Assembly (NCBI GenBank): GCA_045586185.1
Contig: JAZMZV010000246.1
Coordinates: 10,945 to 74,944, forward strand
Length of the DNA: 64,000 nt
Source of the DNA: Thermoguttaceae bacterium
Lineage (GTDB): Bacteria > Planctomycetota > Planctomycetia > Pirellulales > Thermoguttaceae
Reading direction: 5' to 3'
A program made the translations under genes and the position numbers. The notes under the pieces are model-generated. The model was not told where the DNA came from and made no database searches. It saw nothing but the letters and a program-made list of their open reading frames with translations. Shown here piece after piece: positions 12,374-41,544 of this stretch. Numbering within the stretch: the first letter of the stretch is position 1; every line of letters starts with the position of its first letter.

Positions 12374-13969
12374 ATGCTAAACGGAAAGAGTTTGACTTTT
12401 GTTTTTATACTGACGCTGATTGCATCCATAACCCTCAACGCGGCTGAGAATGCGTCGTCGAAAAAAAGCGTTGATGACGCTCAACAGCGCTTTGGCAAAC
12501 CGGCAGTAAATCGTTTTGAACAGATGATTCAGTCCGGCAATTTCGATTTAACTCCGCAAGGGTATAACGAATTTACCGTTCTGCATTATGCTGTGTTTAT
12601 GGACAATTTGGATCTCGCCAAACAATTGGTCGAAAAGGGCGCAGACGTCAGCGCTAAAAACAGGCACAATATAGAGCCCTTATTCTTTGCTGCTGATAAT
12701 GACAATTTGGAAATGGTAAAACTGCTTGTTGAGAATGGAGTAGACGTCAACAATCGAGACTATAACGGCGGCAATCCAGCGCTGCTCGTTGCAGCGTTAA
12801 AAGGCAATTGGGAAATGTTTCAATATCTTGTTGAAAACGGCGCCGATATATTCATCAAAAATTCGCATGGCTGTTCTACTATACACGCAGCCGCGGAAGG
12901 CGGCAATTTGGAAATTGTTAAATGGCTCATCGAGAACGGATTGGACGTCAACACAAAAGTGGCATGTGAATGTACATGTCTGCATCATGCAGCTAAAAGC
13001 GGCAATATCGAATTGATTAAATGGTTCATTGATAAAGGATTGGACATAAACGCCAAAGATATCGAAGAACGCACCGTTTTACATTATGCCGCTGAAGGAG
13101 GCAGCGTGGAAGCGGTTCAGTGGCTTGTCGAACAGGGATTAGACATTAATGCCGTAATTGCTAATCCGAATCGTCGGACTCGTTACATCGGCGGAAACCT
13201 TCATATAGATCTTGATAACGATGGGGTCGATTTATTATCCATCGCGGCGCTGACTGGCAATTTGAAACTGGTTCAATGGCTGGTTGAGCAAGGAATGGAC
13301 GCCGTCGTCGACAATGATATTTTAAGACCGGCGGTTAAAAGCGGCAATATTGAACTCGTTGAATGGCTTGTCGAACAAGGCGCCAATATAAATCAAAACA
13401 AAAATCTGTTATTCTATGCAGCTCTAAATGGCAATTTGAAGCTGGTTCAGTACCTTGTAAAGCAGGGCGCTGACATTAAAAAATCAAATAATGTTTTACA
13501 AGGGGCGGCATGCAGCGGCAATATGGAACTGATTCAATGGCTTATTGAACAGGGCGCTGATGACAACAGCAATGAGGATTCATCAATTTTGGCATACGCT
13601 ATCGACAGTCACGATGTCAACGTATTGCGTTTTTTTGTTGAAGAGAAAAAAATAAACGTTAATGCGTCTATCTCTTCTGCTCGTTACCGTTCACCTTTAG
13701 AACATGCTGTAAATACTGACGATTTTGAAATGGTGAAATTTCTTGTTGAACATGGAGCTGACGCCAATCCAAACAGATGGTCTCGTATAATTCCATATTG
13801 GTATTACTTACATCAACAGGGTCATAACCCTGAGACCGTCAACTACCTTCGAGAACATGACAATACGCTGATAATTTGGAGCGGCGTTTTATCGCTGATA
13901 GTTATATCAATTACTTCATATATAATTTATAGAAATCTTCGATCTAAAAAACCCGTCGAGACGGAGTAA
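12374..13969 (+). CDS. exported, C-terminally membrane-anchored ankyrin-repeat protein (paralogue 1)
   Basis: Signal peptide MLNGKSLTFVFILTLIASITLNA, at least 10 ANK repeats (TVLHYAV..G..E.V.WL.E.G.D.N) and a C-terminal TM helix IIWSGVLSLIVISITSYIIY followed by RNLRSKKP. Confidence 0.9.
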   Translation: MLNGKSLTFVFILTLIASITLNAAENASSKKSVDDAQQRFGKPAVNRFEQMIQSGNFDLTPQGYNEFTVLHYAVFMDNLDLAKQLVEKGADVSAKNRHNIEPLFFAADNDNLEMVKLLVENGVDVNNRDYNGGNPALLVAALKGNWEMFQYLVENGADIFIKNSHGCSTIHAAAEGGNLEIVKWLIENGLDVNTKVACECTCLHHAAKSGNIELIKWFIDKGLDINAKDIEERTVLHYAAEGGSVEAVQWLVEQGLDINAVIANPNRRTRYIGGNLHIDLDNDGVDLLSIAALTGNLKLVQWLVEQGMDAVVDNDILRPAVKSGNIELVEWLVEQGANINQNKNLLFYAALNGNLKLVQYLVKQGADIKKSNNVLQGAACSGNMELIQWLIEQGADDNSNEDSSILAYAIDSHDVNVLRFFVEEKKINVNASISSARYRSPLEHAVNTDDFEMVKFLVEHGADANPNRWSRIIPYWYYLHQQGHNPETVNYLREHDNTLIIWSGVLSLIVISITSYIIYRNLRSKKPVETE

Positions 13970-14185: not shown

Positions 14186-15337
14186 ATGGCATTGACATAT
14201 TTAACAGCTGGAGAATCGCATGGAAAAGGCATCCTGGCTTTGCTGGACGGTTTTCCCGCCGGACTGGAAATTGATACAGATAAAATCGACGCGCTGCTTC
14301 GTCTTCGTCAGGGCGGATACGGCCGCGGCGGACGTCAACAAATCGAAACCGATTCCGTCGACGTTCTGACCGGCGTAAAAGTCAACCGGACGCTGGGAAG
14401 CCCCGTCGCCCTTTGGGTGAAAAATCGAGACTATAAACTCCCACAAATGCCGGAACTGGAACGTCCGCGCCCGGGTCACGGCGACCTGTCCGGATCTCGC
14501 AAATATCAAGACGGGATTCGCGCCATTCTGGAACGCTCCAGCGCTCGAGAGACGGCGGCGAAAGTCGCGGCGGGCGCTCTGGCGGAACAGCTTTTGGAGA
14601 CGTGCGCCGGGATTCGCGTTCTGGCTTACGTTGTCCGAATTGGGGAAGCGGAATTGACGCCTGACGCAGCCCTGCTCTGCGATTTTGACGCTGCAATTGA
14701 AAAGCGAAACGCCAGCCCGGTGTATTCGCTGTCTTCTCCCAAAGCTGACAAACTCGCCTGCGATTTAATCGACAAAACCCGCCAGGCGGGCGACACGATC
14801 GGCGGAATCATCGAAATTCGCGCGACCGGTTTGCTGTTTGGGCTGGGAACGCACGCTCAATGGACGGACAAGCTCGACGGTCGTCTGGCGCAAGCCGTCA
14901 TGGCGGTTCAGGCGATCAAGGGCGTCGAAATCGGCTTGGGATTTCAGGCGGGATTCGTACCCGGTTCTCAGGCGCACGACGCTATCGGCTTCGACCCGAA
15001 ACTGGTCGATACAAAATGCCTGGGATTCGTCCGCCCAACCAATCGCGCTGGCGGTTTGGAAGCCGGCATGACAAACTCGCAGGACATTGTCGTCCGCGCT
15101 GCAATGAAGCCGATTCCGACAATGCTCAAACCGATGGCATCTGTCAGTCTGATAACAAAACAGCCCGAGGAGGCGACTTACGAACGTTCCGACGTCTGCG
15201 CCGTTCCCGCCGCCGCGATTGTTTTGGAATCGGTTGTCGCCATGACGCTTGCCACAGCGCTGACGGAAAAGTTCGGCTGTGACAACGTCGAGGAAATTCG
15301 GCAGAGAATTACGTTATTCAACAAATTAGCAAGATAG
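14186..15337 (+). CDS. aroC: chorismate synthase
   Basis: LTAGESHGKG, RPGHGDLSG and SARETAAKVAAGA motifs. Full length, 383 aa. Confidence 0.95.
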   Translation: MALTYLTAGESHGKGILALLDGFPAGLEIDTDKIDALLRLRQGGYGRGGRQQIETDSVDVLTGVKVNRTLGSPVALWVKNRDYKLPQMPELERPRPGHGDLSGSRKYQDGIRAILERSSARETAAKVAAGALAEQLLETCAGIRVLAYVVRIGEAELTPDAALLCDFDAAIEKRNASPVYSLSSPKADKLACDLIDKTRQAGDTIGGIIEIRATGLLFGLGTHAQWTDKLDGRLAQAVMAVQAIKGVEIGLGFQAGFVPGSQAHDAIGFDPKLVDTKCLGFVRPTNRAGGLEAGMTNSQDIVVRAAMKPIPTMLKPMASVSLITKQPEEATYERSDVCAVPAAAIVLESVVAMTLATALTEKFGCDNVEEIRQRITLFNKLAR

Positions 15338-15393
15338 GCAGTAGGCAATAGGCAGTAGGCAGTAGATATTACTCGCAACTCGTTACTCGCAAC
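15335..15393. repeat. heptamer-array element (GGCAGTA arm / CTCGCAA arm)
   Basis: TAGGCAG TAGGCAA TAGGCAG TAGGCAG TAG, then ATATTA, then CTCGCAA CTCGTTA CTCGCAA CC. The aroC TAG stop is the first unit. The array ends 4 nt before ATG 15398. Confidence 0.9.
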
Positions 15394-15397
15394 CAAC

Positions 15398-16648
15398 ATG
15401 AGATTACGCGATAAAATCCGACGACGCATAGCCCGTACCGTTTTGGCGGTTTTCGGCTGGATTCCTCTTGTCGCGTTGATCTTTATAGCGTTTTTTATTC
15501 GCAGTAAAACGTACGTGGAATGGTCGGAATCGTCGATAGCCAACGCGCTGGAAATGCAGGTCAATTTCGAGTCGTTTGAGCGCCCGCGGTGGGACACGTC
15601 CCGGTTTGAACGCGTAACGCTTAGCGACCCGGAAACGGGCGAGCCGGTTTTGAAATGCGCCTTGCTGGAAGTGGAGCATCAGCACACCAAAACGCCTATT
15701 CGGCTGCTGAGAATACGTCTCAGAGACTGCAAGATTTACATGGACAACTCTGTTTCCCTGTGGTCTTTTGTCCATCGATCGTTCGCGCATCGCCGGCTGT
15801 GGAAAAACATGCAGGTGGAGTTCTCGGCGGTCAACGTGTCTTTCGATTCCTGCAAGGAGCAGTCCATTCGATTCATGTCAGGAACGCTCAAAGACGTCAA
15901 AGACGGTTCAGAAGGCGTGTTTGCTCTCTACATAAACGACCTTCGCGAAGATACGAAAAAGGAAGAATCGAACGAACCCGCGCGCCTGAAAATTGCGCGT
16001 TTGACAAACACGTCTCCTGTAACAACGACAATTGCTCTGGACGCGTCCAACTGTCCGATTGTTTCTGGCATGCTCTCGCATTGGCACGCGCCTTTAAAGC
16101 GTCTTGGCTCCAATTCGCTCTTTCAGGGAACCGTTGTCGCCGCCAACGCCGGCGCTGGCTGGGACGGAACTCTTAAAGGGGAATTCAGCAACGTCGATTT
16201 AAGCAAGATGTTTATCAAAGCCGGGCGAGCGCAGATGATCGCCAACGCCAGAATTACAATCGAAAAAGGCGAGTTTATTGACCAACGGCTGGTAAGCGCT
16301 CGCGGGCGGGTGGACGCTCAAAACGGCGTTATTGACCGCGGTCTGCTCGATACGCTTGTATCGCAGCTTCGCCTCAGTGGAGGCGGCGGATTCAATCCCT
16401 ATTCAGACGCCACTCATTTCACACAGCTCGCTTTCGGGTTTGATATACAAAATGAAATGATTTCTCTTACTGGAAAGTGCAGTTCATGCCCGACGGGCAC
16501 GATTCTCAACAGCCAATGGTCGCTGGTTCGAGAACCGCTCAACCCGTCCGATAAATCCCCGCTTGCCGTCGCCATGAAAACCTTTTCCTACGCCGACAGC
16601 CAACAGTATATCCAAATCGCTCAGCCGGACGGGAATTCCACAAGATAA
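15398..16648 (+). CDS. hypothetical membrane-anchored protein (416 aa)
   Basis: N-terminal TM helix TVLAVFGWIPLVALIFIAFFI. No motif I can name. The coding potential is consistent with neighbouring genes. Confidence 0.7.
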   Translation: MRLRDKIRRRIARTVLAVFGWIPLVALIFIAFFIRSKTYVEWSESSIANALEMQVNFESFERPRWDTSRFERVTLSDPETGEPVLKCALLEVEHQHTKTPIRLLRIRLRDCKIYMDNSVSLWSFVHRSFAHRRLWKNMQVEFSAVNVSFDSCKEQSIRFMSGTLKDVKDGSEGVFALYINDLREDTKKEESNEPARLKIARLTNTSPVTTTIALDASNCPIVSGMLSHWHAPLKRLGSNSLFQGTVVAANAGAGWDGTLKGEFSNVDLSKMFIKAGRAQMIANARITIEKGEFIDQRLVSARGRVDAQNGVIDRGLLDTLVSQLRLSGGGGFNPYSDATHFTQLAFGFDIQNEMISLTGKCSSCPTGTILNSQWSLVREPLNPSDKSPLAVAMKTFSYADSQQYIQIAQPDGNSTR

Positions 16649-18084: not shown

Positions 18085-19761
18085 ATGAAACTCGAAAAAG
18101 TTCTGTGCATTGTATTATTATTGACCCTGAGCGTTTCGGGAACGCTCAACGCGGAAGAAAATTCTACGACTAAAAGAAGCATTGAAGATGCCAAGTCCGC
18201 TTTGGGCAAATCGACCGTAGACCGTTTTGAACAGATGTTTCAATCTGGCGATTTTGATTTCAAGACGTATGGAAATCACGGCGTTACAGTTTTACACTAC
18301 GCTGTCTTTATGAACGATCAAGAACGCGTTAAACTGCTAATCGAAAAAGGAGCCGACGTCAATGCCAAGGATATTGACAGTACAACGCTGTTAATGGCTG
18401 CTACTGATAACAACAATCTGGAAATAACAAAATATCTTGTCGAGAACGGCGCTGACGTCAACGTCCCAGACGACGACGGCGATACAGCTGTATTCTTTGC
18501 AGCTCTAAACGGCAATTGGGAAATGGTTCAATATCTTGTCGAGAAAGGCGCAGATATTACAACTAAAAATAAAAATGATAACACAATTTTAAACTTTGCA
18601 GCTCAAAGCGGCAATTTGAAATTGGTACAATGGCTGGTCGATAAAGGAATAAACGTCAACGCTAAAAACGACAGAGAGTATACATGTCTTCACCATGCAG
18701 CTCAAAGCGGCGATCTGGAGCTGGTTCAATGGCTGGTTGAGAAAGGGCTGGACGTCAACGCTAAAACGGATGAAGACTACACATGCCTGTACCTTGCAGC
18801 TCAAAGCGGGAGTCTGGAGTTGGTCAAATGGCTAGTCGAGAAAGGACTGGACGTCAACGCTGTAAGCGAAGACGATTCAACGCCTCTGCACGCGGCAGCT
18901 CAAAGCGGCAAATTGGAACTGGTCAAATGGCTGGTCGAACAGGGCGCTGACATTCATGCCAAAACGTACAGTAGTCAGACTGTATTATGCTATGCAGCTC
19001 AAAGCGGCAATCTGGAACTGGTTCAATGGCTGGTCGAACAAGGGGCTGAAGGCGTCAAAGATTATGACGTTTTGTATGAAGCGGTTCACAGCAGAAATAT
19101 GGAGCTGATTCAATGGCTCATTGATCAGGGCGCAGACGTATCCACCAATTATTCGGTATTGACCAGCGCGGTTTATTATAACGATATGAAGCTGGCGCAA
19201 TATCTTGTTAAACATGGGGCTAACGTGCGAAAGTCTGTTAACGCATTAGATCAAGCGGTATGGTCCGGCAATATGGAAATGCTTGAATGGCTTATCGCTC
19301 ATGGAGCGGACGTCGACAGTAGAGACAGCGAGGGAAGGTCAGTTTTGTGGTACGCTGTCAACAGTAATAATAAGGACATACTGCATTATCTTATCGAGCA
19401 TGAAGGCGTTGACGTCAATTCATACATATATAAATCATCCATATATAATAATAGTTATTTCTCAGCCTTGGAGGAAGCGGTAAACAGAAACGATTTGGAA
19501 ACGGTCAAATACCTGGTGGAACACGGCGCATATATCAATCCGCATCACGGATTTAAATATTATCGCATTCCCGGCTGGTATAATATGGATCATGTTGATC
19601 AGGAAATTGTACAATATCTTAGAGAACGCGATACTGTTCTTAAAGGACTATCAATCGCGGTATGGCTGATAGTTCTGGCGGTTTTCCTGGCAATTGTCTA
19701 TTTTATCTACAGAATGACTCGACCTAAAAAGCCCGCGAAGACAGAATTATCGAGTTCGTGA
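18085..19761 (+). CDS. exported, C-terminally membrane-anchored ankyrin-repeat protein (paralogue 2)
   Basis: Same architecture as 12374-13969: signal peptide MKLEKVLCIVLLLTLSVSGTLNA, a conserved N-terminal segment (VDRFEQMFQSGDFD...TVLHYAVFMND), ANK repeats, and a C-terminal TM helix LSIAVWLIVLAVFLAIVYFIY followed by RMTRPKKP. Confidence 0.9.
   Translation: MKLEKVLCIVLLLTLSVSGTLNAEENSTTKRSIEDAKSALGKSTVDRFEQMFQSGDFDFKTYGNHGVTVLHYAVFMNDQERVKLLIEKGADVNAKDIDSTTLLMAATDNNNLEITKYLVENGADVNVPDDDGDTAVFFAALNGNWEMVQYLVEKGADITTKNKNDNTILNFAAQSGNLKLVQWLVDKGINVNAKNDREYTCLHHAAQSGDLELVQWLVEKGLDVNAKTDEDYTCLYLAAQSGSLELVKWLVEKGLDVNAVSEDDSTPLHAAAQSGKLELVKWLVEQGADIHAKTYSSQTVLCYAAQSGNLELVQWLVEQGAEGVKDYDVLYEAVHSRNMELIQWLIDQGADVSTNYSVLTSAVYYNDMKLAQYLVKHGANVRKSVNALDQAVWSGNMEMLEWLIAHGADVDSRDSEGRSVLWYAVNSNNKDILHYLIEHEGVDVNSYIYKSSIYNNSYFSALEEAVNRNDLETVKYLVEHGAYINPHHGFKYYRIPGWYNMDHVDQEIVQYLRERDTVLKGLSIAVWLIVLAVFLAIVYFIYRMTRPKKPAKTELSSS
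18598..19092 (+). repeat. five tandem 99-bp units (ANK repeats with high nucleotide identity) inside ankyrin gene 2
   Basis: GCAGCTCAAAGCGG...CTGGTTCAATGGCTGGTCGA recurs at 18598, 18697, 18796, 18895 and 18994, an exact 99-nt period. Confidence 0.85.
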
Positions 19762-20441: not shown

Positions 20442-22139
<1,698 letters not shown>

Positions 22140-22207
22140 GTTGCGAGTTGCGAGTTGCGAGTTGCGAGAATCGCCGCTTGCGTACTACTGCCTACTGCCT
22201 ACTGCCT
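22140..22207. repeat. heptamer-array element (GCGAGTT arm / CTACTGC arm)
   Basis: GTTGCGA x4, centre AATCGCCGCTTGCGTA, CTACTGC x3. It fills the spacer between convergent genes (stops at 22139 and 22211). Confidence 0.9.
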
Positions 22208-22210
22208 CCG

Positions 22211-23434
22211 TTACTCTTTCAATTCTTCCCCTTCTGAGCGCGCAATATAGACGGCGCAGCAGGTGTCGCCGTAGATGTTGACGGTGGTTCTGGTCATGTC
22301 GAGAATGCGGTCAATGGCGAGGATGACGCCCAAGCCTTCCAACGGCAGCCCAACGGCGCGTAAGGCAATAGCAGTCATGACAAAACTTGCCATCGGGATT
22401 CCCGCTGTGCCGGCGGCTGCAAGCATGACAAGCGTGACCATAATTATCTGGTCTGAAAGTGAAAGCGGAAGTCCGTACGCCTGAGACAGGAATATAACAA
22501 TAACGCATTCATACAGAGCCGTGCCGTTCATGTTGAGCGTTGCACCCAAAGGAATAACAAATCCCGACGTCTGACGAGAAACGCCGCTGTTCTTTTCCAG
22601 ACATTCCATCGAAAGAGGAATGGTCGCGTTGGACGTGGCTGTCGAAAACGCCGTCAGCAGGCTTGGAAGCATGTTCACCATGTGACGAATCGGATTGACT
22701 TTGGCGAAGACAATCAAAACAATCGACAGCGTTATAAAGAAGTGGAATCCCATCCCTAAAAAGCTGGTCAGCATAAACATGCCCAGAGAACTGGCGGCTT
22801 GCACCAGTTTGTCGGAATCGCCGGCGTATTTGGCGCACTGAACGGCTATAAGCCCAAAGACGCCAATGGGCGCCAGTCGAACGACCAGCAGCGTCATCTG
22901 CATCATCAGTTCAAAGCACGAGCGGAAAAAATTCTTGAGCGTTTGCGCGTTCGACGACGGTATTGAGTGAATGAGCGTCCCCGCCAGAAAAGCGAAAAAG
23001 ATTACAGGAAGCATGTTTCCCTTGGACATATCCTCAACGACGTTGTTGGGAATCATGTTCATCAACAGTTCGACAAAAGACTTTTGCTGCGCCTGAATCG
23101 CCTGAATATCTTCGAGGTTTGTCGGCATTTCCAGCCCAACGCCCGGACGAAGAATTGTAACAAAAACCATGCCGGTCAGAATCGCCAGCAGCGTCGTGCA
23201 GGCGTAAAAGCCGATGGTTTTGAATCCCATTCGTTTAAGCGCTTCTCCGTCTGGAAGGTTGCCGATTGCGGAAATAATCGAACAAAATATCAACGGCAAA
23301 ACCAGCATGTTAAGCAGCCGCAGGAACAGCGTCCCCATCCAGCCAACGTATCCGATATACGGATAAAACCAGATGCCGAAAACAATTCCGAGGACGATTG
23401 CAATCAAAATCTGCCAATGCAGAGCAAGTTTCAT
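22211..23434 (-). CDS. dicarboxylate/amino acid:cation symporter (DAACS family)
   Basis: 407 aa, polytopic. Family-typical segments SSLGMFMLTSFLG, ATSNATIPLSMEC, VIPLGATLNMNGTALYE and DRILDMTRTTVNIYGD. Confidence 0.9.
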   Translation of the reverse strand: MKLALHWQILIAIVLGIVFGIWFYPYIGYVGWMGTLFLRLLNMLVLPLIFCSIISAIGNLPDGEALKRMGFKTIGFYACTTLLAILTGMVFVTILRPGVGLEMPTNLEDIQAIQAQQKSFVELLMNMIPNNVVEDMSKGNMLPVIFFAFLAGTLIHSIPSSNAQTLKNFFRSCFELMMQMTLLVVRLAPIGVFGLIAVQCAKYAGDSDKLVQAASSLGMFMLTSFLGMGFHFFITLSIVLIVFAKVNPIRHMVNMLPSLLTAFSTATSNATIPLSMECLEKNSGVSRQTSGFVIPLGATLNMNGTALYECVIVIFLSQAYGLPLSLSDQIIMVTLVMLAAAGTAGIPMASFVMTAIALRAVGLPLEGLGVILAIDRILDMTRTTVNIYGDTCCAVYIARSEGEELKE

Positions 23435-23640: not shown

Positions 23641-23777
23641 GTGGTAATTAGTAATGAGTAATTGACGCGAAGCGTTCCGCTAGAACCGCGCTAGCGGTTC
23701 AATATTAGGAGTAAGTAATTAGTTCGCAAGCGCTACTCATACCTACTACTTACTACTAACCACTAACCACTAATCAC
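23641..23777. repeat. heptamer-array element (GTAATKA/GGAGTAA arms, ACCACTA arm) with inner hairpin
   Basis: GTGGTAATTAGTAATGAGTAATTGA, hairpin GAACCGC GCTA GCGGTTC (23683-23700), GGAGTAAGTAATTAGTT, CGCAAGCG, CTACTCATACCTACTACTTACTACTAACCACTAACCACTAATCAC. Confidence 0.85.
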
Positions 23778-23792: not shown

Positions 23793-25706
23793 ATGCGAAT
23801 TACAATATCAATATTCCTGGCGACGTTTTTTATTTACGGCTTTGCTTTGGCGCAAGAGGAGCAAACTCCTTTCCCGATTCTGCCGGAAGAATTGGAAGCG
23901 GCAGAGCCTTTAGACGATACTGCCGTAGCGGAGACGCCCAATCTGGCGGAAGACGTTCAACCGTTAACAAATGACGCCGAAGAAGCCGTTCCGGAAGAAA
24001 CGCCGTCGGATCCGCCGGAACAGGAAACGGATCAACCGGAACAAACAATGCTGCCTGAAGGCATTTCCGAAGAAGAAGCCCGCTGGGCGAACTGGTCGGA
24101 CTGGGATAACGTGGGCGCGAAAAACGACAATTCCAACGTCGCGCCTCAACAGCAGGAACTGATCGCTCCGCAAACGGAAGAAGACGCTCTTGTTGACCAG
24201 TCGCACGCCATGGACAAGTCGGCAGTTCCAGAAATTAACGAGAATCTCGACGCGACGCGTCAGATAAGCGCGGAACCGGAAATGACAGACCCGTTTGAAC
24301 AGGCGCTTGATCAAAACAAAGAAGACATTCAAAAGCCAGACAATAACCAGGAAGAAAACGTTACAGAAAACAACGATTTCCAGACAACGGAAAACGCTCA
24401 AAGCGACAATCCGTCTTCGTCCAATAACTCGCAAAAGTCTGTTACAGATTTAATAGATAACGCAACCGCTGAACCCAAATCCGCTTTGCCGCAGGAAACT
24501 CGCTATATGGAGTCGTTTTCATTGCGTCAGGACAAGCCGGCGAAGATAAACAACCGCATTTCCAGCGTCATTGATAAGATCAAAGTCGTTCGACGCCAGT
24601 ATTTTGACAAGCAGCTCAACACGCAAGACAATTCTCCCTTTGAAGCCATGATGTCCGTTTGCGCTTTTGGCTGTTACACGTCGATTCTCTATACCCCTCA
24701 AAACGAGAAATTCAATACGGCTGGGGCGCTGTGCTGGAACTACCCCATGTGCGAGACTTCCATTTTAGCAATCAACCAAAATTCCAAATCGGTAAACAGC
24801 GAGGAGTTTTCCAAAAATCGAACGGGAAAACCTCTCTTTATGACGCGCTATCCTCACGGACGTCTGACCTCCGTTCCGATGAACGAGTCAGGAACAGTTT
24901 TCCCATACATCGGCTACTGCCAGCAGGAGCGAAGCGGCGAGTTCCTGTCCATGCTGGCAATTGCCCGAGTTGCGGTTGATTACGAGTTTACGCCCCGCAT
25001 GCCGATGGATATAGACGTTCTTATCGCCAGCGCGGATGATTCTCCAGACGCGTTACCGCCAGCCGTTCGATCTTCCGGACTGACGTTTACCGTTGCCGAT
25101 CTGGCGTCAGACGCCATGCTCAACTGCCGCGGCGGAGACATGTCCGCACTGTTGACCTGCTTGTCCTATTACGCTCCGCGGGAGAGTTGGAAAAACGCCT
25201 GGGGAGAAGAATGGTCGGTATTGAAGATTCTGGATCATGAACTCAAACGAACTGTCAACCTGTCCGACTCGGACTCAACAGATCGTCTTTACGGTTTAAC
25301 GTATGCGCTTAGGCGCCGGTTGGCGTTTGACGACAAGCGTCTGGAAATTCAGTACGCCATCGTAGACGAATATCTGGAACGGATGAAAGACTTTGCTCTT
25401 TCGATTCAAAATGAAGACGGTTCTTTTAACGGCGCTTTCTTTACCAGAAAAGGCAAAAGCCGGAACCCGGACGACGATTTCGCCGCTACGGCGCATTTCG
25501 CCCGATGGCTGACAATTCTCTATCACAGCAGCGCATTGGACGACCCTCAACTGACGAAAATGATTGAGTTTCTCGTTTCTGAACTCGAACAGCGGCTGGA
25601 AAGCTGGAACCCGTCGGAGATGTCACAAAAAGACGTCCGCGCCGTTGCCTACGCTCTGCAGGCGATTGCGATTTATCAGCAGCGCTGGGCGGCGAAGAGC
25701 AATTAA
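23793..25706 (+). CDS. exported hypothetical protein with long acidic linker (637 aa)
   Basis: Signal peptide MRITISIFLATFFIYGFALAQE, ~200 aa rich in E/P/D/Q/N, then a ~380-aa globular C-terminal region without motifs I can name. Confidence 0.75.
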   Translation: MRITISIFLATFFIYGFALAQEEQTPFPILPEELEAAEPLDDTAVAETPNLAEDVQPLTNDAEEAVPEETPSDPPEQETDQPEQTMLPEGISEEEARWANWSDWDNVGAKNDNSNVAPQQQELIAPQTEEDALVDQSHAMDKSAVPEINENLDATRQISAEPEMTDPFEQALDQNKEDIQKPDNNQEENVTENNDFQTTENAQSDNPSSSNNSQKSVTDLIDNATAEPKSALPQETRYMESFSLRQDKPAKINNRISSVIDKIKVVRRQYFDKQLNTQDNSPFEAMMSVCAFGCYTSILYTPQNEKFNTAGALCWNYPMCETSILAINQNSKSVNSEEFSKNRTGKPLFMTRYPHGRLTSVPMNESGTVFPYIGYCQQERSGEFLSMLAIARVAVDYEFTPRMPMDIDVLIASADDSPDALPPAVRSSGLTFTVADLASDAMLNCRGGDMSALLTCLSYYAPRESWKNAWGEEWSVLKILDHELKRTVNLSDSDSTDRLYGLTYALRRRLAFDDKRLEIQYAIVDEYLERMKDFALSIQNEDGSFNGAFFTRKGKSRNPDDDFAATAHFARWLTILYHSSALDDPQLTKMIEFLVSELEQRLESWNPSEMSQKDVRAVAYALQAIAIYQQRWAAKSN

Positions 25707-25838
25707 GCTACTAGCCGCTAGCTACTAGCTTCTAGCTTGGTTATTTTAGTTTCTGGCTTTAAAAATTAACGCCGAGAACTAAAAATGAACAAGCTAATGG
25801 CTAGTAGCTAATAGCTAACAGCTATCTACTGTCTAACC
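25707..25838. repeat. ~130-nt GCTAG-family long-hairpin element, copy 1
   Basis: 33-nt arms at 25707-25739 and 25790-25822 (25/33 Watson-Crick; 7 of 8 mismatches are transitions). An inner pair TTAGTTTCTGGC/GCCGAGAACTAA is also present. Homologous to 56909-57030. It fills the spacer between convergent stops at 25706 and 25839. Confidence 0.85.
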
Positions 25839-28518
<2,680 letters not shown>

Positions 28519-28746: not shown

Positions 28747-29310
28747 ATGAACTACGACCCGATTGCATTAAAGCAGTTAATTAAAGACAACGCGTTGAAG
28801 TTTGGCGACTTCGTTCTCGCCAGCGGCAAGAAAGCCAAGTACTATTGCGACAGCAAACAGGTAACTCTCGATTCCGAGGGTCTGCGGCTGGTCGGAGAGG
28901 GCATGCTGGAAATTGTCAACTCTCTGCCGTTCCCGATTCAGGCGGTTGGCGGCATGGCAATCGGAGCTGATCCGATTACTGCGTCCGTCTTGTGCGCCGC
29001 CGCCGGGCAGAAAAAACCGCTTAAAGGGTTTATGGTTAGAAAAGAAGCCAAAGACCACGGCACCCAGAAATTTCTCGAAGGCCCCGTCAAGCCGGGCGAC
29101 GAAGTCGTGATTGTAGAAGACGTCGTTACGACGGGCGGTTCGTCCCTCAAAGCGATTGAACGCTGCAACGAGTTCGGGCTCAAAGTCAAGGCGGTTATCG
29201 CTATTCTCGACCGCATGGAAGGCGGACGCGAAAACTTTGAAGCCGCCGGATACCCGCTTTACAGCCTGTTTACGATTCTCGACTTCGGTCTGACGCCGCC
29301 CAAAGAGTAA
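28747..29310 (+). CDS. pyrE: orotate phosphoribosyltransferase
   Basis: Start moved to ATG 28747 (MNYDPIALKQLI). FGDFVLASGKKAKYYCD and the PRPP motif VVIVEDVVTTGGS. Confidence 0.9.
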   Translation: MNYDPIALKQLIKDNALKFGDFVLASGKKAKYYCDSKQVTLDSEGLRLVGEGMLEIVNSLPFPIQAVGGMAIGADPITASVLCAAAGQKKPLKGFMVRKEAKDHGTQKFLEGPVKPGDEVVIVEDVVTTGGSSLKAIERCNEFGLKVKAVIAILDRMEGGRENFEAAGYPLYSLFTILDFGLTPPKE

Positions 29311-29315
29311 TTTGG

Positions 29316-29396
29316 AAATAGGGAATAGGGAATAGTAATTCGGCCTTCGGCGAATTTAAAAACTACTCCCTACTCCCTACTCCCCATTCCCTACTC
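29316..29396. repeat. heptamer-array element (GGGAATA arm / AATTCGGCC hairpin / CTACTCC arm)
   Basis: GAAATAGGGAATAGGGAATAGT, AATTCGGCCTTCGGCGAATT (29337-29356), CTACTCCCTACTCCCTACTCCCCATTCCCTACTC. The TAG stop of the minus-strand hydrolase gene (29391-29393) lies in the right arm. Confidence 0.9.
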
Positions 29397-30287
29397 AGCA
29401 GCAAAGACAGTTAAGACGCCTGTTGATCCGAGATAGTCCGCCAAAGCGTGCGTTGCGCCCACCTGATTGACTACGTTGTAAATCGTAACTTTTTCTTTTT
29501 GAGAAGCGGGAACGCCAGCAACGCCGTCTCGTCCCATGGCTTCCGTCTGTCTGTCCGGCGTAACGAACCGATACCATTTCAAACCGGTGTCTGCACAATT
29601 AACCGTTAAATAACATCGAGTCTGACATTCCAGAGCTTTCTCTCTGCCGCAAACAAACGCGTAAGTCGGAACCGCCGGCGCGATAAGCAGAGATTGAATC
29701 TTTCCCGACGTTCCCGGTTGAGTTCTGCCGTAGACTTTTCCTCCTGAGAGGAGCTGACAAGCTCCCAAAACCGTATTGGCGCCAAAGCTGTAGCCAATCA
29801 GACGAATCTCGGCGCTTTCCGGCGCGGATTCCAGGAATCTCGTCAGATAAAAGCTCTCCCACTGACTTCGCCGTTCGGCATTGGTCGCGTCTTGACGTAT
29901 CGGCGCGCCAGTTCGAGCGGAATTCCAGAACCAGACAACGAGCTTATAATTCTTATCGGCAATAACCCTGTTGAGATACTGACGAATCAGATAACCGTCG
30001 CTGATTGCAGAACATCTGTCCGCCTGATTTCCATGAATGTAAATAAACGTCTTGCATCCTTCGGAATCCTTCCAGATCGCGTCCTTGTCCGCCGCTGTCC
30101 AACCAGTCGAGGTCTCAACAACGGCTTTAAAGCCTGCGTCCATCTGTTCCGGATCGAGACTGCCGCCGTGTCCACAAGAATCTACGACATAAAATTCTTC
30201 CGCCTGCGCTGCACAGAACGCAAAAAGAACTGTCATCAACGCGGCAGCGCAAAACAGACGCTTGGCAAAGGCAATATAATATTGCAT
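29391..30287 (-). CDS. exported alpha/beta hydrolase, DUF900-like
   Basis: Start moved to ATG 30287 (signal peptide MQYYIAFAKRLFCAAALMTVLFAFCAAQA). FIYIHGNQ and the nucleophile-elbow-like IRLIGYSFGANTV. Confidence 0.75.
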   Translation of the reverse strand: MQYYIAFAKRLFCAAALMTVLFAFCAAQAEEFYVVDSCGHGGSLDPEQMDAGFKAVVETSTGWTAADKDAIWKDSEGCKTFIYIHGNQADRCSAISDGYLIRQYLNRVIADKNYKLVVWFWNSARTGAPIRQDATNAERRSQWESFYLTRFLESAPESAEIRLIGYSFGANTVLGACQLLSGGKVYGRTQPGTSGKIQSLLIAPAVPTYAFVCGREKALECQTRCYLTVNCADTGLKWYRFVTPDRQTEAMGRDGVAGVPASQKEKVTIYNVVNQVGATHALADYLGSTGVLTVFAAE

Positions 30288-31968: not shown

Positions 31969-31986
31969 GATAATTATTAAAGACAA

Positions 31987-32079
31987 AAGGGAGTAGGGAG
32001 TAGTTTTTAAATTCGCCGTAGGCGAATTACTATTCCCCATTCCCTATTCCCTATTTCCTTCTATTCCCCATTCCCTCAC
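31987..32079. repeat. heptamer-array element (GGGAGTA arm / AATTCGCC hairpin / CCCTATT arm)
   Basis: AAGGGAGTAGGGAGTAG, AATTCGCCGTAGGCGAATT (32010-32028), CTATTCCCCATTCCCTATTCCCTATTTCCTTCTATTCCCCATTCCCTCAC. The track ORF start at 32040 is an artefact. Confidence 0.9.
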
Positions 32080-32105
32080 ATTTTCGTGTTGTTTCGAACT
32101 TTATT

Positions 32106-33158
32106 TTACTCGTTCTGATTCTTTTTATCAGCGCTCTCTTTTTCCAACTTTTTGAGCCGATTGTCGGCGTCGCGAATCTGCTTTTTGAATTCCGGCAATT
32201 TGGAAATCAGAGCGAATTTGAGCAGCTGTTCCCGTTCCGGACAGGCGGGCGCGCCGAGCATTTTCGCTCCCGGTTCGATATTGTTCATAACGCCGCACTT
32301 GGCGCCTAAAATCGCGCAATCGCCAATATGGACGTGATCTCTAACGCCGACCTGCCCTGCCATGACGACGTAATCTCCGGTTGTAACGCTGCCGGCAATT
32401 CCCACCTGAGCGCAAAGGAGATTGTGTTTTCCGATCTGGCAGTTGTGACCAACCATCACCTGATTGTCGATCTTCGTACCGTCGCCAATTCGCGTCGAGC
32501 CATATGCGCCGCGGTCAATGGTACTGTTGGCGCCAACGTCAACGTCGTCTCCCAAAATGACGTTGCCCAGCTGAGCCGCCAACGCATGTTTGCCGTCAAC
32601 GAGTTTGTATCCAAAGCCGTTTGCTCCAATCGACGCCCCCGCGCTGAGAATGCAGCGTTTTCCGACAACGCAGTCTTCATGAACCACGACGCCGGGATAG
32701 AGGACAGAATTCTCGCCGATTTTCGCTCCCGCCATGACGCAGGAATGAGGATGAAGGACGACGTTGTCGCCGATTTCCGCCTCCGGACCGACGTAAACAA
32801 ACGGATAAATTGTTACATTCACACCGATTTTTGCCGATGGATCTATACTCGCCTGCAGGCTGACAAACGGCTCAGGCGCAACTCGCTGAGGACGAAACAG
32901 TTTCACGATTTTCGTAAAGGCGTCGTGAACGTCGTCGACCATCAACGCCGGGATTCCAACGGACAAATCTGATTTCGGCATGACAACCGCAGACGCCTGC
33001 GTATTAAACAGCGTATCGAGTCTGCCTACGTTGTCGATGAGCGTAATGTCGCCCGGCCCGGCCTCCGAAAGGATAGCGGCGTTTTCGATTACCGTAGAAC
33101 CGTCTCCTACGATGGTCGCGTTAACCAGTTTTGCCAGTTGGGAAAGTGTTTGTGCCAT
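32106..33158 (-). CDS. lpxD: UDP-3-O-(3-hydroxyacyl)glucosamine N-acyltransferase
   Basis: N-terminal LpxD domain (LSQLAKLVNATIVGDGSTVIENAAILSEAGPGDITLIDN), a long left-handed beta-helix of hexapeptide repeats, and a C-terminal helix. Confidence 0.9.
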   Translation of the reverse strand: MAQTLSQLAKLVNATIVGDGSTVIENAAILSEAGPGDITLIDNVGRLDTLFNTQASAVVMPKSDLSVGIPALMVDDVHDAFTKIVKLFRPQRVAPEPFVSLQASIDPSAKIGVNVTIYPFVYVGPEAEIGDNVVLHPHSCVMAGAKIGENSVLYPGVVVHEDCVVGKRCILSAGASIGANGFGYKLVDGKHALAAQLGNVILGDDVDVGANSTIDRGAYGSTRIGDGTKIDNQVMVGHNCQIGKHNLLCAQVGIAGSVTTGDYVVMAGQVGVRDHVHIGDCAILGAKCGVMNNIEPGAKMLGAPACPEREQLLKFALISKLPEFKKQIRDADNRLKKLEKESADKKNQNE

Positions 33159-33165
33159 ATTGAGT

Positions 33166-33267
33166 GAGGGAATAGGGAGTAGGGAATAGGGAGTAGAGGC
33201 AATAGGCAGTAGGCAGTAGGCAGTAGGAAAATTTTACTACTGCCTCTTGCCTACTCCCTACTGCCTA
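33166..33267. repeat. heptamer-array hairpin (GGGAATA/GGCAGTA arm, CTACTGC arm) between aspS and lpxD
   Basis: GGGAATA/GGGAGTA x4 and GGCAATA/GGCAGTA x4, loop AAAATTTTA, CTACTGCCTCTTGCCTACTCCCTACTGCCTAA. The arms are largely complementary. The aspS TAG stop (33265-33267) lies in the right arm. Confidence 0.9.
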
Positions 33268-35040
33268 ATTCTCCTCTTTTCTCGTATTCTGAATGGACAG
33301 TTCGTCAAGCTGTTTGTCGTCGACAACGCCGGGGGCGCCGGTCATGAGGTCTGTTGCTCGGGCGGTCTTCGGGAACGCAATGACGTCGCGAATGTTGTCG
33401 TACCCGCCAAAGAGCATGACAAGACGGTCAACGCCCAACGCAATGCCAGCGTGCGGCGGAGCGCCGAACTTCAACGCGTCGAGAAGGAACCCGAACCGTT
33501 CGTGAGCCGTTTGGTCATCGATGTTGAGCAGCTTGAAAATCTTCGCCTGAAGGTTGGTGTCGTGAATACGAACCGTGCCGCCGCCCGCTTCAAAGCCGTT
33601 GATTACCAGGTCGTACGCAACCGCGTGAACCTTTTCCGGGGCGGTGTCCAGCAAATCCAGTTCCGCCGGCTGAGGCATGGTGAACGGGTGATGCTTGGCG
33701 TCCCATTTGTTGTCCTCTTCGTTCCATTCGAACATCGGGAAGGAGACGATCCAGGAAAAGCTCATCGACTTCGGGTCGTAAAGCTTGAGTTCCTTCGCCA
33801 ACCGTCGGCGCAAACCGTCCAACGCGGCGCAGGTGATGTCGAACGTGTCCGCGACAACCAGAATCATATCGCCGTCTTTCGCGCCGGTGATTTCCAGAAT
33901 CTTTTTGTGTTCCTCGTCCGTGAACTTTTTCGCCGTCGGAGACGCGATGTCGCCGTTTTCCACCTTGAACCAGACAAGTCCTTTCGCCTTGAAATCTTCC
34001 TTGACGTAAGTCGTCAGCTCGTCAATCGCCTTGCGTGAATACTTGTCGGCGCACTGCGGAACGACGATCGCCCGAACCCGATTGCCCGCTTCCGCAGGAC
34101 CGCGAAAGACCTGGAAATCAACGGTTTTGGCGAACTCGGTCAGGTCGATAATTTCCATGCCGAAACGAAGATCCGGCTTGTCAGAGCCATAGCGTTCCAT
34201 GGCTTCGTCATAGTCCATTCGTGACAGCGGCAGCTGGAGGTCAAGACCAAGTATCTTCTTCGCCAGGTCAGCGATCATGCCGTCCATGAACGTGAGTACG
34301 TCTTCCATCTCGACAAACGACATTTCAATATCGAGTTGAGTGAATTCAGGTTGACGATCTGCCCGTAGGTCTTCGTCACGGAAGCAGCGCGCCAGCTGAA
34401 CGTAACGGTCGTACCCGGCAATCATCAGCAGCTGCTTGTACAGCTGCGGGGACTGCGGCAGGGCGTAGTATTTGCCTGGATGAACGCGGCTGGGGACCAG
34501 GTAGTCTCTCGCGCCTTCGGGAGTGGATCGACCCAGCATCGGGGTTTCGACTTCGATAAATCCGTGAGCATCGGTATAATCGCGCAGCGTCTTAATCATG
34601 CGATGGCGAAGAATCAACGCTTCCTGCATAGCGGTTCGGCGCAAGTCCAAATATCGATATTGCAGACGAACGTCTTCGCTGGGCAATTCCGGAATGCTCG
34701 GATAAACCGGCGGCTGATTGCATTTGTTCAGAAGCGTCATTTGAGTAGGACGGACCTCGATTTCCCCTGTCGCCATGTCGGGATTCGCCTGACCAACCGG
34801 TCGAGCGCAGACCTTGCCCGTTACCTGAACGACGTACTCCATTTTCAGCCCTCGAGCCTGTTCGAGAAGCTCTTCGCCCGCCTCGGGAGCAAACGCCGTT
34901 TGAGTAATTCCGTATCTGTCTCGCAGGTTAACAAAAACCAATCCGCCCTGATTGCGAATTCGGTCGACCCAACCGCAAATCGTTACTTCCTGTCCAATAT
35001 GTTCCGCCCTCAGGGCGCCGCACGTGTGTGTTCTGTACAT
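33265..35040 (-). CDS. aspS: aspartate--tRNA ligase
   Basis: MYRTHTCGALRAEHIGQEVTICGWVDRIRNQGGLVFVNLRDRYG. Class II motifs FRDEDLRADRQPEFTQLD, GGTVRIH and GIALGVDRLVM. Confidence 0.95.
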   Translation of the reverse strand: MYRTHTCGALRAEHIGQEVTICGWVDRIRNQGGLVFVNLRDRYGITQTAFAPEAGEELLEQARGLKMEYVVQVTGKVCARPVGQANPDMATGEIEVRPTQMTLLNKCNQPPVYPSIPELPSEDVRLQYRYLDLRRTAMQEALILRHRMIKTLRDYTDAHGFIEVETPMLGRSTPEGARDYLVPSRVHPGKYYALPQSPQLYKQLLMIAGYDRYVQLARCFRDEDLRADRQPEFTQLDIEMSFVEMEDVLTFMDGMIADLAKKILGLDLQLPLSRMDYDEAMERYGSDKPDLRFGMEIIDLTEFAKTVDFQVFRGPAEAGNRVRAIVVPQCADKYSRKAIDELTTYVKEDFKAKGLVWFKVENGDIASPTAKKFTDEEHKKILEITGAKDGDMILVVADTFDITCAALDGLRRRLAKELKLYDPKSMSFSWIVSFPMFEWNEEDNKWDAKHHPFTMPQPAELDLLDTAPEKVHAVAYDLVINGFEAGGGTVRIHDTNLQAKIFKLLNIDDQTAHERFGFLLDALKFGAPPHAGIALGVDRLVMLFGGYDNIRDVIAFPKTARATDLMTGAPGVVDDKQLDELSIQNTRKEEN

Positions 35041-35453: not shown

Positions 35454-36623
35454 ATGGCAAAGAAGAAAACCAATCCGTCAGAATCGGTCGAACCAACCCC
35501 CAAAACCCGCAAGCGCGCCGTCAAGCTCAACGAAAAGGATACGCGAACGCTCGAGGCGCTTAATCGTTTGGCTCAGAGCGTTATTAACGCCGCTAACGGC
35601 GCTGGCGAGCCGGAAATGTATATCCCGTCCAGAAGTTTGTCAAACGTTTGGTTTGACGAGAAAAAGCGAATCATCCAGATGGGCGACCGCACGACAACGC
35701 GGCAGCTGTTCAATCTGTCGCAAGCCAAGGCGTTTATGCAAACCATGCTCGTCGCGTCGGGAACGTCTGAACTGATTCGTCAAGGCAAAACGACTTCTAT
35801 TCGAGGTCTGTACTATTTGATGAAGCATACCATCGAACACGCCAAGGAAGAGACGTTCAACGATCAGGGCGAGTCCGACCCGATTATCGAAGACTGCGAG
35901 GTCTTGCTGGAATGTTTGCGCGAAGAGATGCACCTGTACGCTCAAACCCGCGGCGCCATGGTCGGCATGATTCAGATTGTCGATAAAGGCGACACGATCG
36001 ACTGCGCTCGAATGGGGTCAGGCGGATACGCAGTGCCGTCGATTGTCGAGCCGGACGTGATTCAGTTCAAAAACTGCAAGGCTGACTTTATTCTCCATGT
36101 TGAAAAAGACACCGTCTGGCAGCGATTCAACGAAGACAAGTTCTGGAAGAAGCACAACTGCATTTTGACTCACGGTTCCGGTCAGCCGCCGCGAGGCATG
36201 AGACGGCTGCTCTACCGCATGAACAAGGAACTCAAACTGCCGGTTATTTGTCTGTTAGATAACGACCCGTGGGGATACTATATTTATTCTGTTATCAAAC
36301 AGGGATCAATCAATCTGGCTTTTGAGTCCAAACGAATGGCAATTCCCAGCGCCAAGTTTTTGGGCTTGCGCTCCAAAGACTTTGAAGCGTGCGGACTGTC
36401 GAAAAGCGCCAGAATCAACCTCAACGATTCGGACCGCAAACGCGCCAAACAGATTGCTGAATATCCATGGTTCAAAAACAACAAACCGTGGCAGCAGGAA
36501 ATAAAACTGATGCTCGAAAACGGATTCAAGCTGGAAGTCGAATCGCTCATCAGCAAAGACATCAGCTACGTTACGGAGATTTACACGCCGCAGCGACTGG
36601 CGGCTAAAGACTGGCTGGACTGA
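35454..36623 (+). CDS. top6A: DNA topoisomerase VI subunit A / Spo11 family protein
   Basis: 389 aa. Catalytic-Tyr region TSIRGLYYLMKH (5Y-CAP), Toprim Glu ILHVEKDTVWQRF and Toprim DxD CLLDNDPWGYYIY. Confidence 0.85.
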   Translation: MAKKKTNPSESVEPTPKTRKRAVKLNEKDTRTLEALNRLAQSVINAANGAGEPEMYIPSRSLSNVWFDEKKRIIQMGDRTTTRQLFNLSQAKAFMQTMLVASGTSELIRQGKTTSIRGLYYLMKHTIEHAKEETFNDQGESDPIIEDCEVLLECLREEMHLYAQTRGAMVGMIQIVDKGDTIDCARMGSGGYAVPSIVEPDVIQFKNCKADFILHVEKDTVWQRFNEDKFWKKHNCILTHGSGQPPRGMRRLLYRMNKELKLPVICLLDNDPWGYYIYSVIKQGSINLAFESKRMAIPSAKFLGLRSKDFEACGLSKSARINLNDSDRKRAKQIAEYPWFKNNKPWQQEIKLMLENGFKLEVESLISKDISYVTEIYTPQRLAAKDWLD

Positions 36624-40910: not shown

Positions 40911-41021
40911 GTTAACCAATAAATAACGACTCAACGCATCATTCGTTAAAATGCGCTAATTATCAGGGTCTGGGCTAAATCATCTCATACAAGAATGACT
41001 CTAACTCTCGAAAGAAAAAGC

Positions 41022-41057
41022 AAGGCGTTAATCGTCATTAGCGTCTTGTTTTTTTTC
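41022..41057 (+). terminator. intrinsic terminator after the 1389-aa gene
   Basis: 11-bp stem AAGGCGTTAAT/ATTAGCGTCTT (two G-U pairs), loop CGTC, then GTTTTTTTTT. Confidence 0.6.
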
Positions 41058-41485
41058 TCAATGAACATTTAACGCTTGCGGTTATTAATTCGTTCAAGTT
41101 CATGATTGACAAATGAACCAAAAGAATTCTTTTTAGCGCTTCGCAGTCTAAAAACATTTGACGATCATTAATTCATCAACATAAAAATGCGTTTGATTCA
41201 ATTGCGTTATACTGTTTCATTCATAACTACAAATCCTCAAATAATGCGTATTTTCAGGGCTTTTCAGCAATTATCATCACTGTTCAATCAAACAACAAAA
41301 ACATCTCAACAGATTTTAAAATTGTTATTAAAAAAGTTCAGATAAAAAATTAATCATCATGTTTGTTTAACAAATACATTGATGTCATTTCTCAAAATTA
41401 TGGTCTGTCGATAGCATTATTAAAACTTTTTCAAAACTTTTTCAAGTATTTTTTATTTTTTTTATGATTTTTTATGAAAGACGTC

Positions 41486-41512
41486 TTGCATAATTCTGAT
41501 TTATGGTATATT
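41486..41512 (+). promoter_or_regulatory. promoter with extended -10 for the H1-like gene
   Basis: TTGCAT (41486-41491), 15-nt spacer ending in TGG, TATATT (41507-41512). About 190-nt leader. Confidence 0.4.
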
Positions 41513-41532
41513 GTTTTATTAATAACACACGC

Positions 41533-41544
41533 GTTCAATTGAAC
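41533..41544. promoter_or_regulatory. perfect 12-nt palindrome GTTCAATTGAAC (operator candidate)
   Basis: It lies ~20 nt downstream of the putative -10. A related imperfect site GTTCAAATTGATCAAC is at 41574-41589, and GTTCA...TGAAC is at ~41093-41125. Confidence 0.35.

Follow-up and report, generated by a model that had tools for sequence, protein, structure and literature searches.

What kind of sequence fills the gap between two convergent genes, an open reading frame (ORF) of 637 amino acids (aa) and gyrB, at positions 25706-25824 of a 64,000-nucleotide (nt) stretch of contig JAZMZV010000246.1 from a Thermoguttaceae bacterium (the window, meaning this whole stretch)? A preliminary description of this DNA had paired the gap with a second segment, read both as copies of a hairpin-forming module that might be mobile, and proposed selection on the stem as RNA. 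Our analysis suggests that the segment, which we call the GCTAG element, is probably one member of a palindromic repeat family, lineage-specific and non-autonomous, with copies of about 119 nt in ruminant-gut Thermoguttaceae (Planctomycetota), similar in type to REPINs (hairpin-forming doublets of repetitive extragenic palindromic, or REP, sequences) and to short tandemly repeated repetitive (STRR) sequences. It is one of several families, each with an arm type and a core of its own, that fill most intergenic spacers here. The GCTAG family is a form of its own within an already described type of bacterial interspersed repeat. Of greater interest is the system around it, polar and modular cassettes of heptamers that stand at gene boundaries throughout the lineage.

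The window holds two copies. Copy 1 lies at 25706-25824 with its core in the plus orientation (nhmmer profile match of 122 bits), and its first A is the final base of the TAA stop codon (25704-25706) of the 637-aa ORF. It consists of a left arm of five heptamers (25706-25740; AGCTACT AGCCGCT AGCTACT AGCTTCT AGCTTGG), a core that is an asymmetric imperfect palindrome (25741-25789; TTATTTTAGTTTCTGGCTTTAAAAATTAACGCCGAGAACTAAAAATGAA, as placed by a 25-copy alignment, its core motif being exact in 26 other copies) and a right arm of five units (25790-25824; CAAGCTA ATGGCTA GTAGCTA ATAGCTA ACAGCTA). The right end falls 14 nt short of the gyrB stop codon (25839-25841, opposite strand). Copy 2 occupies 56910-57028 on the same strand (98 bits), with a left arm at 56910-56944 (AGCTTTT AGCCTCT AGCTTCT AGTTATT AGCTTTG) and a right arm at 56993-57027 (CAAGCTA ACAGCTA GCGGCTA GCAGCTA ATAGCTT). 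As had been described, copy 1 sits between convergent stop codons and copy 2 between the divergent starts of genes for an M16 peptidase and a Gfo/Idh/MocA protein. Both segments were correctly located and only their limits change: the last 14 nt formerly assigned to copy 1 (25825-25838; TCTACTGTCTAACC) form a pair of degenerate TAG-type units (GGTTAGA CAGTAGA, as read on the gyrB strand) that directly follow the gyrB stop codon and fall outside the family consensus. The two segments do align along their whole length, at 89 of 122 positions (73%) with one gap column, and the inner core is conserved far above chance, with two exact matches in the window to AACAAGCTAANNGCTAG against 0.03 expected and two to ATTTTAGNTTCNNGCTTTAA, for which shuffles average 0.36 even when up to three mismatches are permitted.

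The evidence for a dispersed family comes from related genomes. An exact scan with the left core motif, over one genome per species of bacteria and archaea (a collection outside which the window's own genome falls), returned 117 loci. The full element is present at 26 of these, all in five gut Thermoguttaceae metagenome-assembled genomes (MAGs; JAZUMX, JAZRTH, JAZQDP, JAFQXE and JAFZAL, from goat, water buffalo and other gut samples, ruminant guts), while the remaining loci belong to unrelated taxa and have few or no flanking GCTA blocks. Viral contigs gave 14 motif matches, none of which is a GCTAG element. An nhmmer profile built from 25 copies and run over the Thermoguttaceae loci added two copies with a diverged left core, which brings the total to 30 copies in 262 kb of Thermoguttaceae DNA from six genomes, 28 of them beyond the window's two, and also revealed a coreless, arm-only GCTAG hairpin at locus L148 (136-200). 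Copies are found in convergent, divergent and both co-directional gene arrangements, and the earlier inference of a context-independent module rather than a gene-specific terminator is upheld by these further copies.

Across the family, the left arm has one to five AGCTNNT units (usually five), so that lengths change in steps of whole 7 nt; the core spans about 50-55 nt and the right arm usually has five NNAGCTA units. The consensus reads as four AGCTNNT units, AGCTTGGTTATTTTAGTTTCAGGCTTTAAATATTAACGCTGAGAACTACAAATGCACAAGCTAA and four NNGCTAN units, and the right-hand flanks show no conservation. The core forms an imperfect palindrome, and the differences between its halves are the same in every copy, which indicates common descent from one asymmetric master rather than independent local palindromes. 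Core identity, calculated over columns outside the search motif, is 0.82 within genomes and 0.80 between them; the nearest neighbours of most copies lie in another genome, and a ACTAGTAACC subfamily is common to three MAGs. Orthologous proteins among these genomes are only 58-90% identical. The family is therefore older than the species splits and has been held near its consensus. The closest relative of the window in the collection is JAFZAL, the two being alike at 90% of amino acids and 91.5% of nucleotides around the 637-aa gene. The closeness to consensus could come from replication of a master sequence, as in REPIN populations (PMC3116915), or from selection on the sequence.

The GCTAG element belongs to a much wider pattern. 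Arrays with a period of 7 number 3.1 per 10 kb of the window and 2.65 per 10 kb of the gut Thermoguttaceae loci, compared with 0.04 in other Planctomycetota and 0.02 in other bacteria, loci recovered as gyrB relatives (the best 64% identical) serving as controls for array density. Period 7 alone is enriched, about 70-150-fold over other bacteria, the arms here having 4-5 units each (Tandem Repeats Finder and a period scan), and periods 5, 6 and 8 gave no arrays in the window or the gut Thermoguttaceae loci. By our own count, such arrays make up roughly 24 of the 37 intergenic spacers in the window, about two thirds of them, and fall into several families (AGGCAGT, AGGGAAT, GAGTTGC, AATTGCT, GTGGTTA and AGCTNNT). 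Nearly all purine-rich arm families follow the form (T/G)A(G/A) plus N4, namely TAGGCAG, TAGGGAA, TAGCTNN, TAGTGGT, TAATTGC and GAGTTGC. A G-rich, TAG-bearing arm comes first and a C-rich, ACT-type arm second in 22 adjacent pairs, against two pairs in the reverse order, and this polarity is strand-symmetric, reading alike from both strands; the orientation of the core relative to the outer arms is for that reason uninformative. In many genes the stop codon coincides with the first or second TAG of an array, ACT-type arms reach to within 5-30 nt of start codons, and purine-rich arms begin, as judged by eye, a few bases 3' of conserved TATAAT boxes. Stop codons in all three frames are no universal rule, however, as the GAGTTGC family has none.

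The arms themselves are not confined to this lineage. Matches listed from a scan for four TAGCTNN units include Acidobacteriota, Cyanobacteria, Gemmatimonadota, Bacteroidota, Selenomonadaceae, Alcanivorax and others, and in several of the listed matches a left and a right array flank a short loop, the whole standing beside a start or stop codon. What is specific to Thermoguttaceae is the core, dispersed along with the arms.

Every arm family surrounds a centre peculiar to it, such as AATTCGCC-UUCG/UACG-GGCGAATT between AGGGAAT and ACTCCCT arms, or GAGATGAGCGCTTGCGTCC between GTGGTTA and TAACCAC arms. Between the convergent stop codons near 54 kb (53834-54015), an AGGCAGT arm is followed by a GATTCGCC-TTCG-GGCGAATT hairpin and further on by an ACTGCCT arm, and at 29299-29398 an AGGGAAT arm, AATTCGGCC-TTCG-GCGAATT and an ACTCCCT arm run from stop codon to stop codon. 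The spacer at 58634-58756 is filled from stop to start codon by a GTGGTTA arm, the GAGATGAGCGCTTGCGTCC loop, a TAACCAC arm and ACTCCCT units, with a paralogous copy at 61690-61804. A convergent spacer at 22136-22210 combines four GAGTTGC units, a GCCGCTTGCG loop and three ACTGCCT units, so that its arms belong to different families and are non-complementary, and a further sister element of the AGGGAGT/UACG-hairpin type lies at 31988-32076, where the orthologous spacer of JAZRTH has a GCTAG element. Other array-filled spacers are found at 1768-1883, 15325-15401, 33153-33273, 44923-45030, 47004-47098, 48475-48616, 60154-60238 and 63051-63259.

One sister element lies within a gene. At 20463-20570, four AGGGAAT units, a GAATTCGCC-GGAG-GGCGAATTC mini-hairpin and four ACTGCCT units are placed in frame inside a 565-codon ORF (20442-22139), which has a conserved ATG and reads through the complete heptamer hairpin in the window and in three other loci (L200 from 675, L202 from 398 and L203 from 547). 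In all four genomes, the unit that would bring an in-frame TAG reads CAG or AAG, and the out-of-frame TAGs are retained. The right arm is made of four ACTGCCT units in two genomes and of four ACTCCCT units in the other two, a concerted change of all units. Being read in frame, with only its in-frame TAG removed, this element behaves in the way that tolerated insertions of selfish palindromic DNA do.

Small structures recur within these elements. A mini-hairpin of the form (A)AATTCGCC-loop-GGCGAATT(T), with UUCG, UACG or GGAG as its loop, is present at 20506-20527, 29337-29356, 32009-32028, 53870-53891 and 60185-60205. The UNCG loops stand in the sense of the upstream gene in all four decidable cases, and the recurrent mini-hairpins may be short bidirectional terminators. 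In several families a loop motif, GAG..GCGCTTGCGT, joins the purine-rich and pyrimidine-rich arms and could form a CUUG tetraloop on a 3-bp stem (window 22160-22185, 23726-23740, 47050-47064, 58675-58692 and 61731-61748; L198 5225-5245).

Spacers have turned over while their flanking genes stayed alike. We compared three window spacers (22139-22211, 25706-25839 and 31980-32106) with their orthologues at loci L198, L200, L202, L203 and L095, and found flanking genes about 89-96% identical around spacers that cannot be aligned and carry different element families. Between the 637-aa gene and gyrB, the window has the GCTAG element and JAFZAL has AGTGCAT units, a loop and ACTGCCT units, with the native stop codons at the same positions in both. 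The spacer at 22139-22211 is different in all five genomes compared, four of which carry distinct heptamer elements and the fifth (L198) an inserted gene. The orthologues of 31980-32106 in JAZRTH (L095 and L161) hold a GCTAG element in place of the window's AGGGAGT/UACG-hairpin element, and some orthologous spacers (L199, L200) hold no family at all. Small hairpin modules have also been gained or lost inside loops between genomes. Two palindromic modules, GAACCGCGCTAGCGGTTC and CCGTGGGTTTTAACCCACGG, vary by genome in their presence inside element loops and recur at an unrelated spacer (window 23660-23720; the leader of the 637-aa gene in L202 and L203; L202 spacer 2075-2275), behaving like very small nested mobile repeats. 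The gene inserted in JAFZAL (L198 360-1755, opposite window 22139-22211) encodes a tandem-repeat protein with a Sel1/TPR-like look by eye and carries its own 15-bp coding repeats of the GAAGCTGAAATCGCA type.

If the segment is a copy of a REPIN/STRR-like repeat family, that family would persist in the manner of REPINs, its copies forming a population held close to a single master. New copies might be made by an enzyme acting in trans, or the arrays might provide portable homology for recombination. A transcribed element would then be a generic hairpin at the end of a gene or in a leader, with TAG stops on either side in each of the three frames, and would not be a sense-specific RNA gene. Several results weigh against this reading. 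The suggestion of a module like a REPIN or a MITE (a transposable element of miniature size with inverted repeats) is borne out as far as dispersal goes, but the target-site duplication of a classic MITE is absent: no consistent direct repeat flanks the 28 copies, and TA stands on both sides of the element at only three independent loci. A Pfam scan of 35 window ORFs found neither a transposase nor a REP-associated tyrosine transposase (RAYT, of the IS200/IS605 type). Orthologous spacers are replaced rather than filled or unfilled, with no clean empty site among them, so that no insertion event is directly observed; for copy 2, a metagenome scan with the Gfo/Idh/MocA protein gave a best match of 41% identity and no orthologue. 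The left half of the core was itself the search motif, so its invariance is partly by construction, and only the right half and the two profile-found copies give an unbiased view of core conservation. Equal identity within and between genomes, taken with the strong sequence conservation seen in the core, agrees as well with purifying selection for a function in the host as with maintenance of the REPIN kind.

The proposal that the stem is selected as RNA rested on the mismatches of copy 1. The count behind it is exact: 25 of 33 arm positions form Watson-Crick pairs and the eight mismatches are five A-C, two plus-strand G-U and one transversion, so that seven are transitions and the five A-C become G-U on the minus, gyrB-sense strand. 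The long imperfect hairpin is equally firm, with significant folding on the two strands of copy 1 (-53.1 and -54.2 kcal/mol; z of -7.2 and -7.5 against shuffles) and of copy 2 (-38.4 and -44.2 kcal/mol; z of -3.9 and -3.8), and with z values of -3 to -8 on both strands in 24 of 26 copies, the two weakest having truncated left arms. The strand bias does not extend beyond copy 1. Copy 2 pairs at 25-26 of 33 positions, with three to four transversions and wobble-type mismatches split two and two, and the arms of 25 copies have 95 transversions, 73 A-C mismatches (G-U on the minus strand) and 66 plus-strand G-U. Mean minimum free energy is -45.1 kcal/mol for the plus strand against -43.4 for the minus strand, which is the more stable in only 12 of 26 copies. 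In the 25-copy alignment, where 83.7% of cells in the full hairpin are paired, covariation scores 0.093 where shuffles average 0.106 (the observed score is reached in 497 of 500 of them), and the RNAalifold covariation term is 0. The pattern in copy 1 is thus an accident of one copy, because the larger sample shows neither strand bias nor covariation. Each heptamer has a middle variable base that does not pair in 16-20 of 25 copies, typically being any base opposite a pyrimidine, and the stem therefore consists of 6-bp helices from the invariant palindromic TAGCT(A) block, with one mismatch per 7 nt. The hairpin is a by-product of this block in every unit, its mismatches do not covary, and the stem is equally able to form on either strand, as DNA or as RNA.

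The copy 1 mismatches and the strong hairpin could be explained by a structured RNA, either a small RNA or a stem acting in cis, that is selected as RNA on the gyrB-sense strand. This reading is largely refuted by the larger counts, and we give it a very slight probability. Relative to genes, core orientation is random (five co-directional sense, five antisense, eight convergent and at least four divergent). Rfam 15 gives no match at the gathering threshold in the window, and the best hit of a lenient scan of copy 1, 36.5 bits against a cut-off of 74, is to a plant microRNA-precursor model and reflects a generic hairpin shape. A promoter scan found no consensus promoter in or near either copy. 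No U-tract (Rho-independent) terminator is present at copy 1, and copy 2 has only a weak internal match in its right arm. The last of these results, together with the missing covariation, also weighs against a possible, though rather unlikely, role as gene-boundary punctuation, for which the host would keep the hairpin, and the heptamer-element system as a whole, by selection. In transcripts the hairpin would protect the 3' or 5' ends of mRNA, separate cistrons and close all three frames, with the core as a docking site for a host factor. Such a role would account for elements that reach from a stop codon to another stop or a start, leaving gaps of 0-46 nt, for the fixed polarity of the arms, for purine-rich arms that follow the TATAAT boxes seen by eye and would form leader 5' ends, for sister mini-hairpin loops of UUCG, UACG and CUUG (the UNCG loops being sense to the upstream gene), and for a core conserved across genomes with proteins as diverged as those above; cyanobacterial hairpins of 7-bp repeats have been proposed to stabilise transcripts or couple translation (PMC2670836). 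It is harder to reconcile with orthologous spacers that carry unrelated families or none (L199, L200), which implies that no given element is required at a gene, and with copy 2, which appears by eye to lie upstream of the candidate -10 boxes of both divergent genes and may be untranscribed.

Two further explanations concern the arrays rather than the stem. They might be binding sites for an oligomeric protein, either a HutP- or TRAP-like ring on RNA or a DNA-binding protein, that reads (U/G)AG plus four bases, with the core as a specific site. HutP recognises two sites, one on each side of a G-C stem, in which XAG triplets recur every 7 nt with four spacer bases between them (PMC2425495). The sequence pattern of such RNA sites, two sets of three triplets around a stem, is present in both arms of copy 1. 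Nearly all purine-rich arm families share this form, conservation is at the level of sequence without covariation, and only period 7 is enriched. We consider the explanation very unlikely: the second arm of most families has CUA and not XAG; TAGCTNN arrays in many unrelated phyla fit better with a general property of slippage than with one dedicated protein; and no HutP or TRAP homologue came up, no search aimed at one having been made. The resemblance to HutP sites is one of pattern and no more than a lead, and the arrays here are genome-wide instead of in one leader. Pure local slippage, in which simple sequence expands at each site with no copying between sites, draws on the same phyletic spread, on the finding that among long simple-sequence repeats bacteria have heptamers most often (Mrazek 2007, cited in PMC4679880), and on L198, where the last 7 nt of a gene are duplicated at the start of the spacer (AGCAATT AGCAATT). 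As an account of the whole element it is refuted, and hardly credible, since the same asymmetric, non-repetitive core is shared by 30 unrelated sites in six genomes; for the growth and shrinkage of the arms slippage is plausible. There is also a small chance, below that of punctuation and above that of binding arrays, that the GCTAG element is the outward sign of a genome-wide punctuation system in gut Thermoguttaceae, in which an active process rather than passive slippage writes and rewrites (T/G)AG-N4 arrays and cores at gene boundaries, and that the cassettes set transcript ends, leader structure and frame closure for most genes. Candidates for such a process would be a dedicated nuclease or transposase, or a HutP/TRAP-like ring protein that reads the 7-nt period.

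We return to the preferred reading, a dispersed REPIN/STRR-like repeat family, and to how it compares with known systems. REP units are imperfect palindromes of 20-40 bp with GTAG or CGTC at one end (PMC3733652). REPs and REPINs share with the GCTAG element an extragenic location, a length of about 100 nt, a long hairpin built from two inverted halves with a spacer (here in the 24 of 26 copies noted above), many copies round a master, no target-site duplication and a position mostly at gene ends (PMC3116915; PMC3733652). In contrast to them, the halves of the GCTAG element are tandem AGCTNNT units with outer ends of AGCT and no terminal GTAG or CGTC, compensatory changes, reported as common in REPINs, are absent, and the window ORFs include no RAYT. 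The GCTAG element thus works like a REPIN but lacks the GTAG/CGTC tag and the compensatory changes. GTAG does occur in the units of some families only, and it was rejected as a link to REPs.

The STRR heptamers of heterocystous cyanobacteria form intergenic hairpins, for instance between hupS and hupL, and have no established function (PMC2670836); regulatory effects have been described for heptamer repeats in Nostoc (bioRxiv 10.1101/2022.06.06.494920). The GCTAG element resembles them in its tandem intergenic 7-nt units (three or more in tandem being the STRR standard, which its arms reach), its hairpins between genes, its length steps of 7 nt and the proposed role in transcript stability or translational coupling (PMC2670836; PMC4679880). 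It differs in belonging to Planctomycetota and in not being purely repetitive, as its arrays are the inverted arms of a dispersed unit with a conserved asymmetric core in all 30 copies, and here several arm families nest in each other with a fixed purine-first polarity. The TAACTGA heptamer repeats that adjoin start codons in marine Beggiatoaceae, Cyanobacteria and Bacteroidetes (MacGregor 2015, PMC4679880) are similar in having two to six or more tandem heptamers with stop triplets within a few bases of starts, in genomes with little Shine-Dalgarno use, and in a patchy spread across phyla. They consist of a single heptamer, mostly forward upstream of starts and not in inverted arms round a core, whereas here we find many heptamer families in inverted pairs with no bias in core orientation.

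MITEs and Rickettsia palindromic elements (RPEs) are likewise small, non-coding palindromic repeats scattered in a genome. RPEs are read in frame inside ORFs, a likeness to the sister element at 20463-20570. The GCTAG element differs from both groups in having no target-site duplication and in having arms of tandem repeats instead of unique terminal inverted repeats. RPEs are mentioned in PMC3733652. A literature search with loose terms found nothing on repeats of this sort in Thermoguttaceae.

For decades heptanucleotide repeats have been on record in cyanobacteria with no mechanism or function established. Gut Thermoguttaceae offer a clean system in which to study such repeats, with a single period expanded about 100-fold, strict polarity, modular cassettes that reach start and stop codons, and turnover at about 90% flanking identity. 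The origin of the arrays, and whether their role is selfish or one of gene punctuation, become testable through strain comparison and metatranscriptomics. The repeats also have practical consequences. Gene callers are misled, with ORFs starting within arrays and one genuine ORF running through an element. Several MAG contigs break off within heptamer arrays or the GCTAG element (L204 1897-1939; the ends of L093, L115, L134 and L161), and the repeats therefore fragment short-read assemblies.

Among the genes next to the two copies, the 637-aa ORF has no Pfam match and an exact-protein look-up gave no record for its product, while the Gfo/Idh/MocA gene is of the type with a twin-arginine translocation signal. 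Heptamer hairpin elements also separate each of three tandem ORFs of 465, 467 and 419 aa (58766-63063, plus strand); the first has a Metallopep/M10-like domain and shares stretches of 85-89% identical DNA with the second. Elsewhere on the plus strand, an ORF at 35454-36623 has the domains of topoisomerase VI subunit A/Spo11 (TP6A_N, Toprim), which are uncommon in bacteria, and is followed by a 1406-aa ORF without a Pfam match. A lysine- and alanine-rich, histone-H1-like ORF (41670-42062, plus strand) contains 15-nt coding repeats and is preceded by a 760-nt AT-rich spacer (40910-41670) without heptamer arrays. Finally, large ankyrin-repeat proteins are encoded at 12374-13969 and 18085-19761 on the plus strand, with a 99-nt periodicity in the DNA and about 60-75% identity between repeats across both genes.

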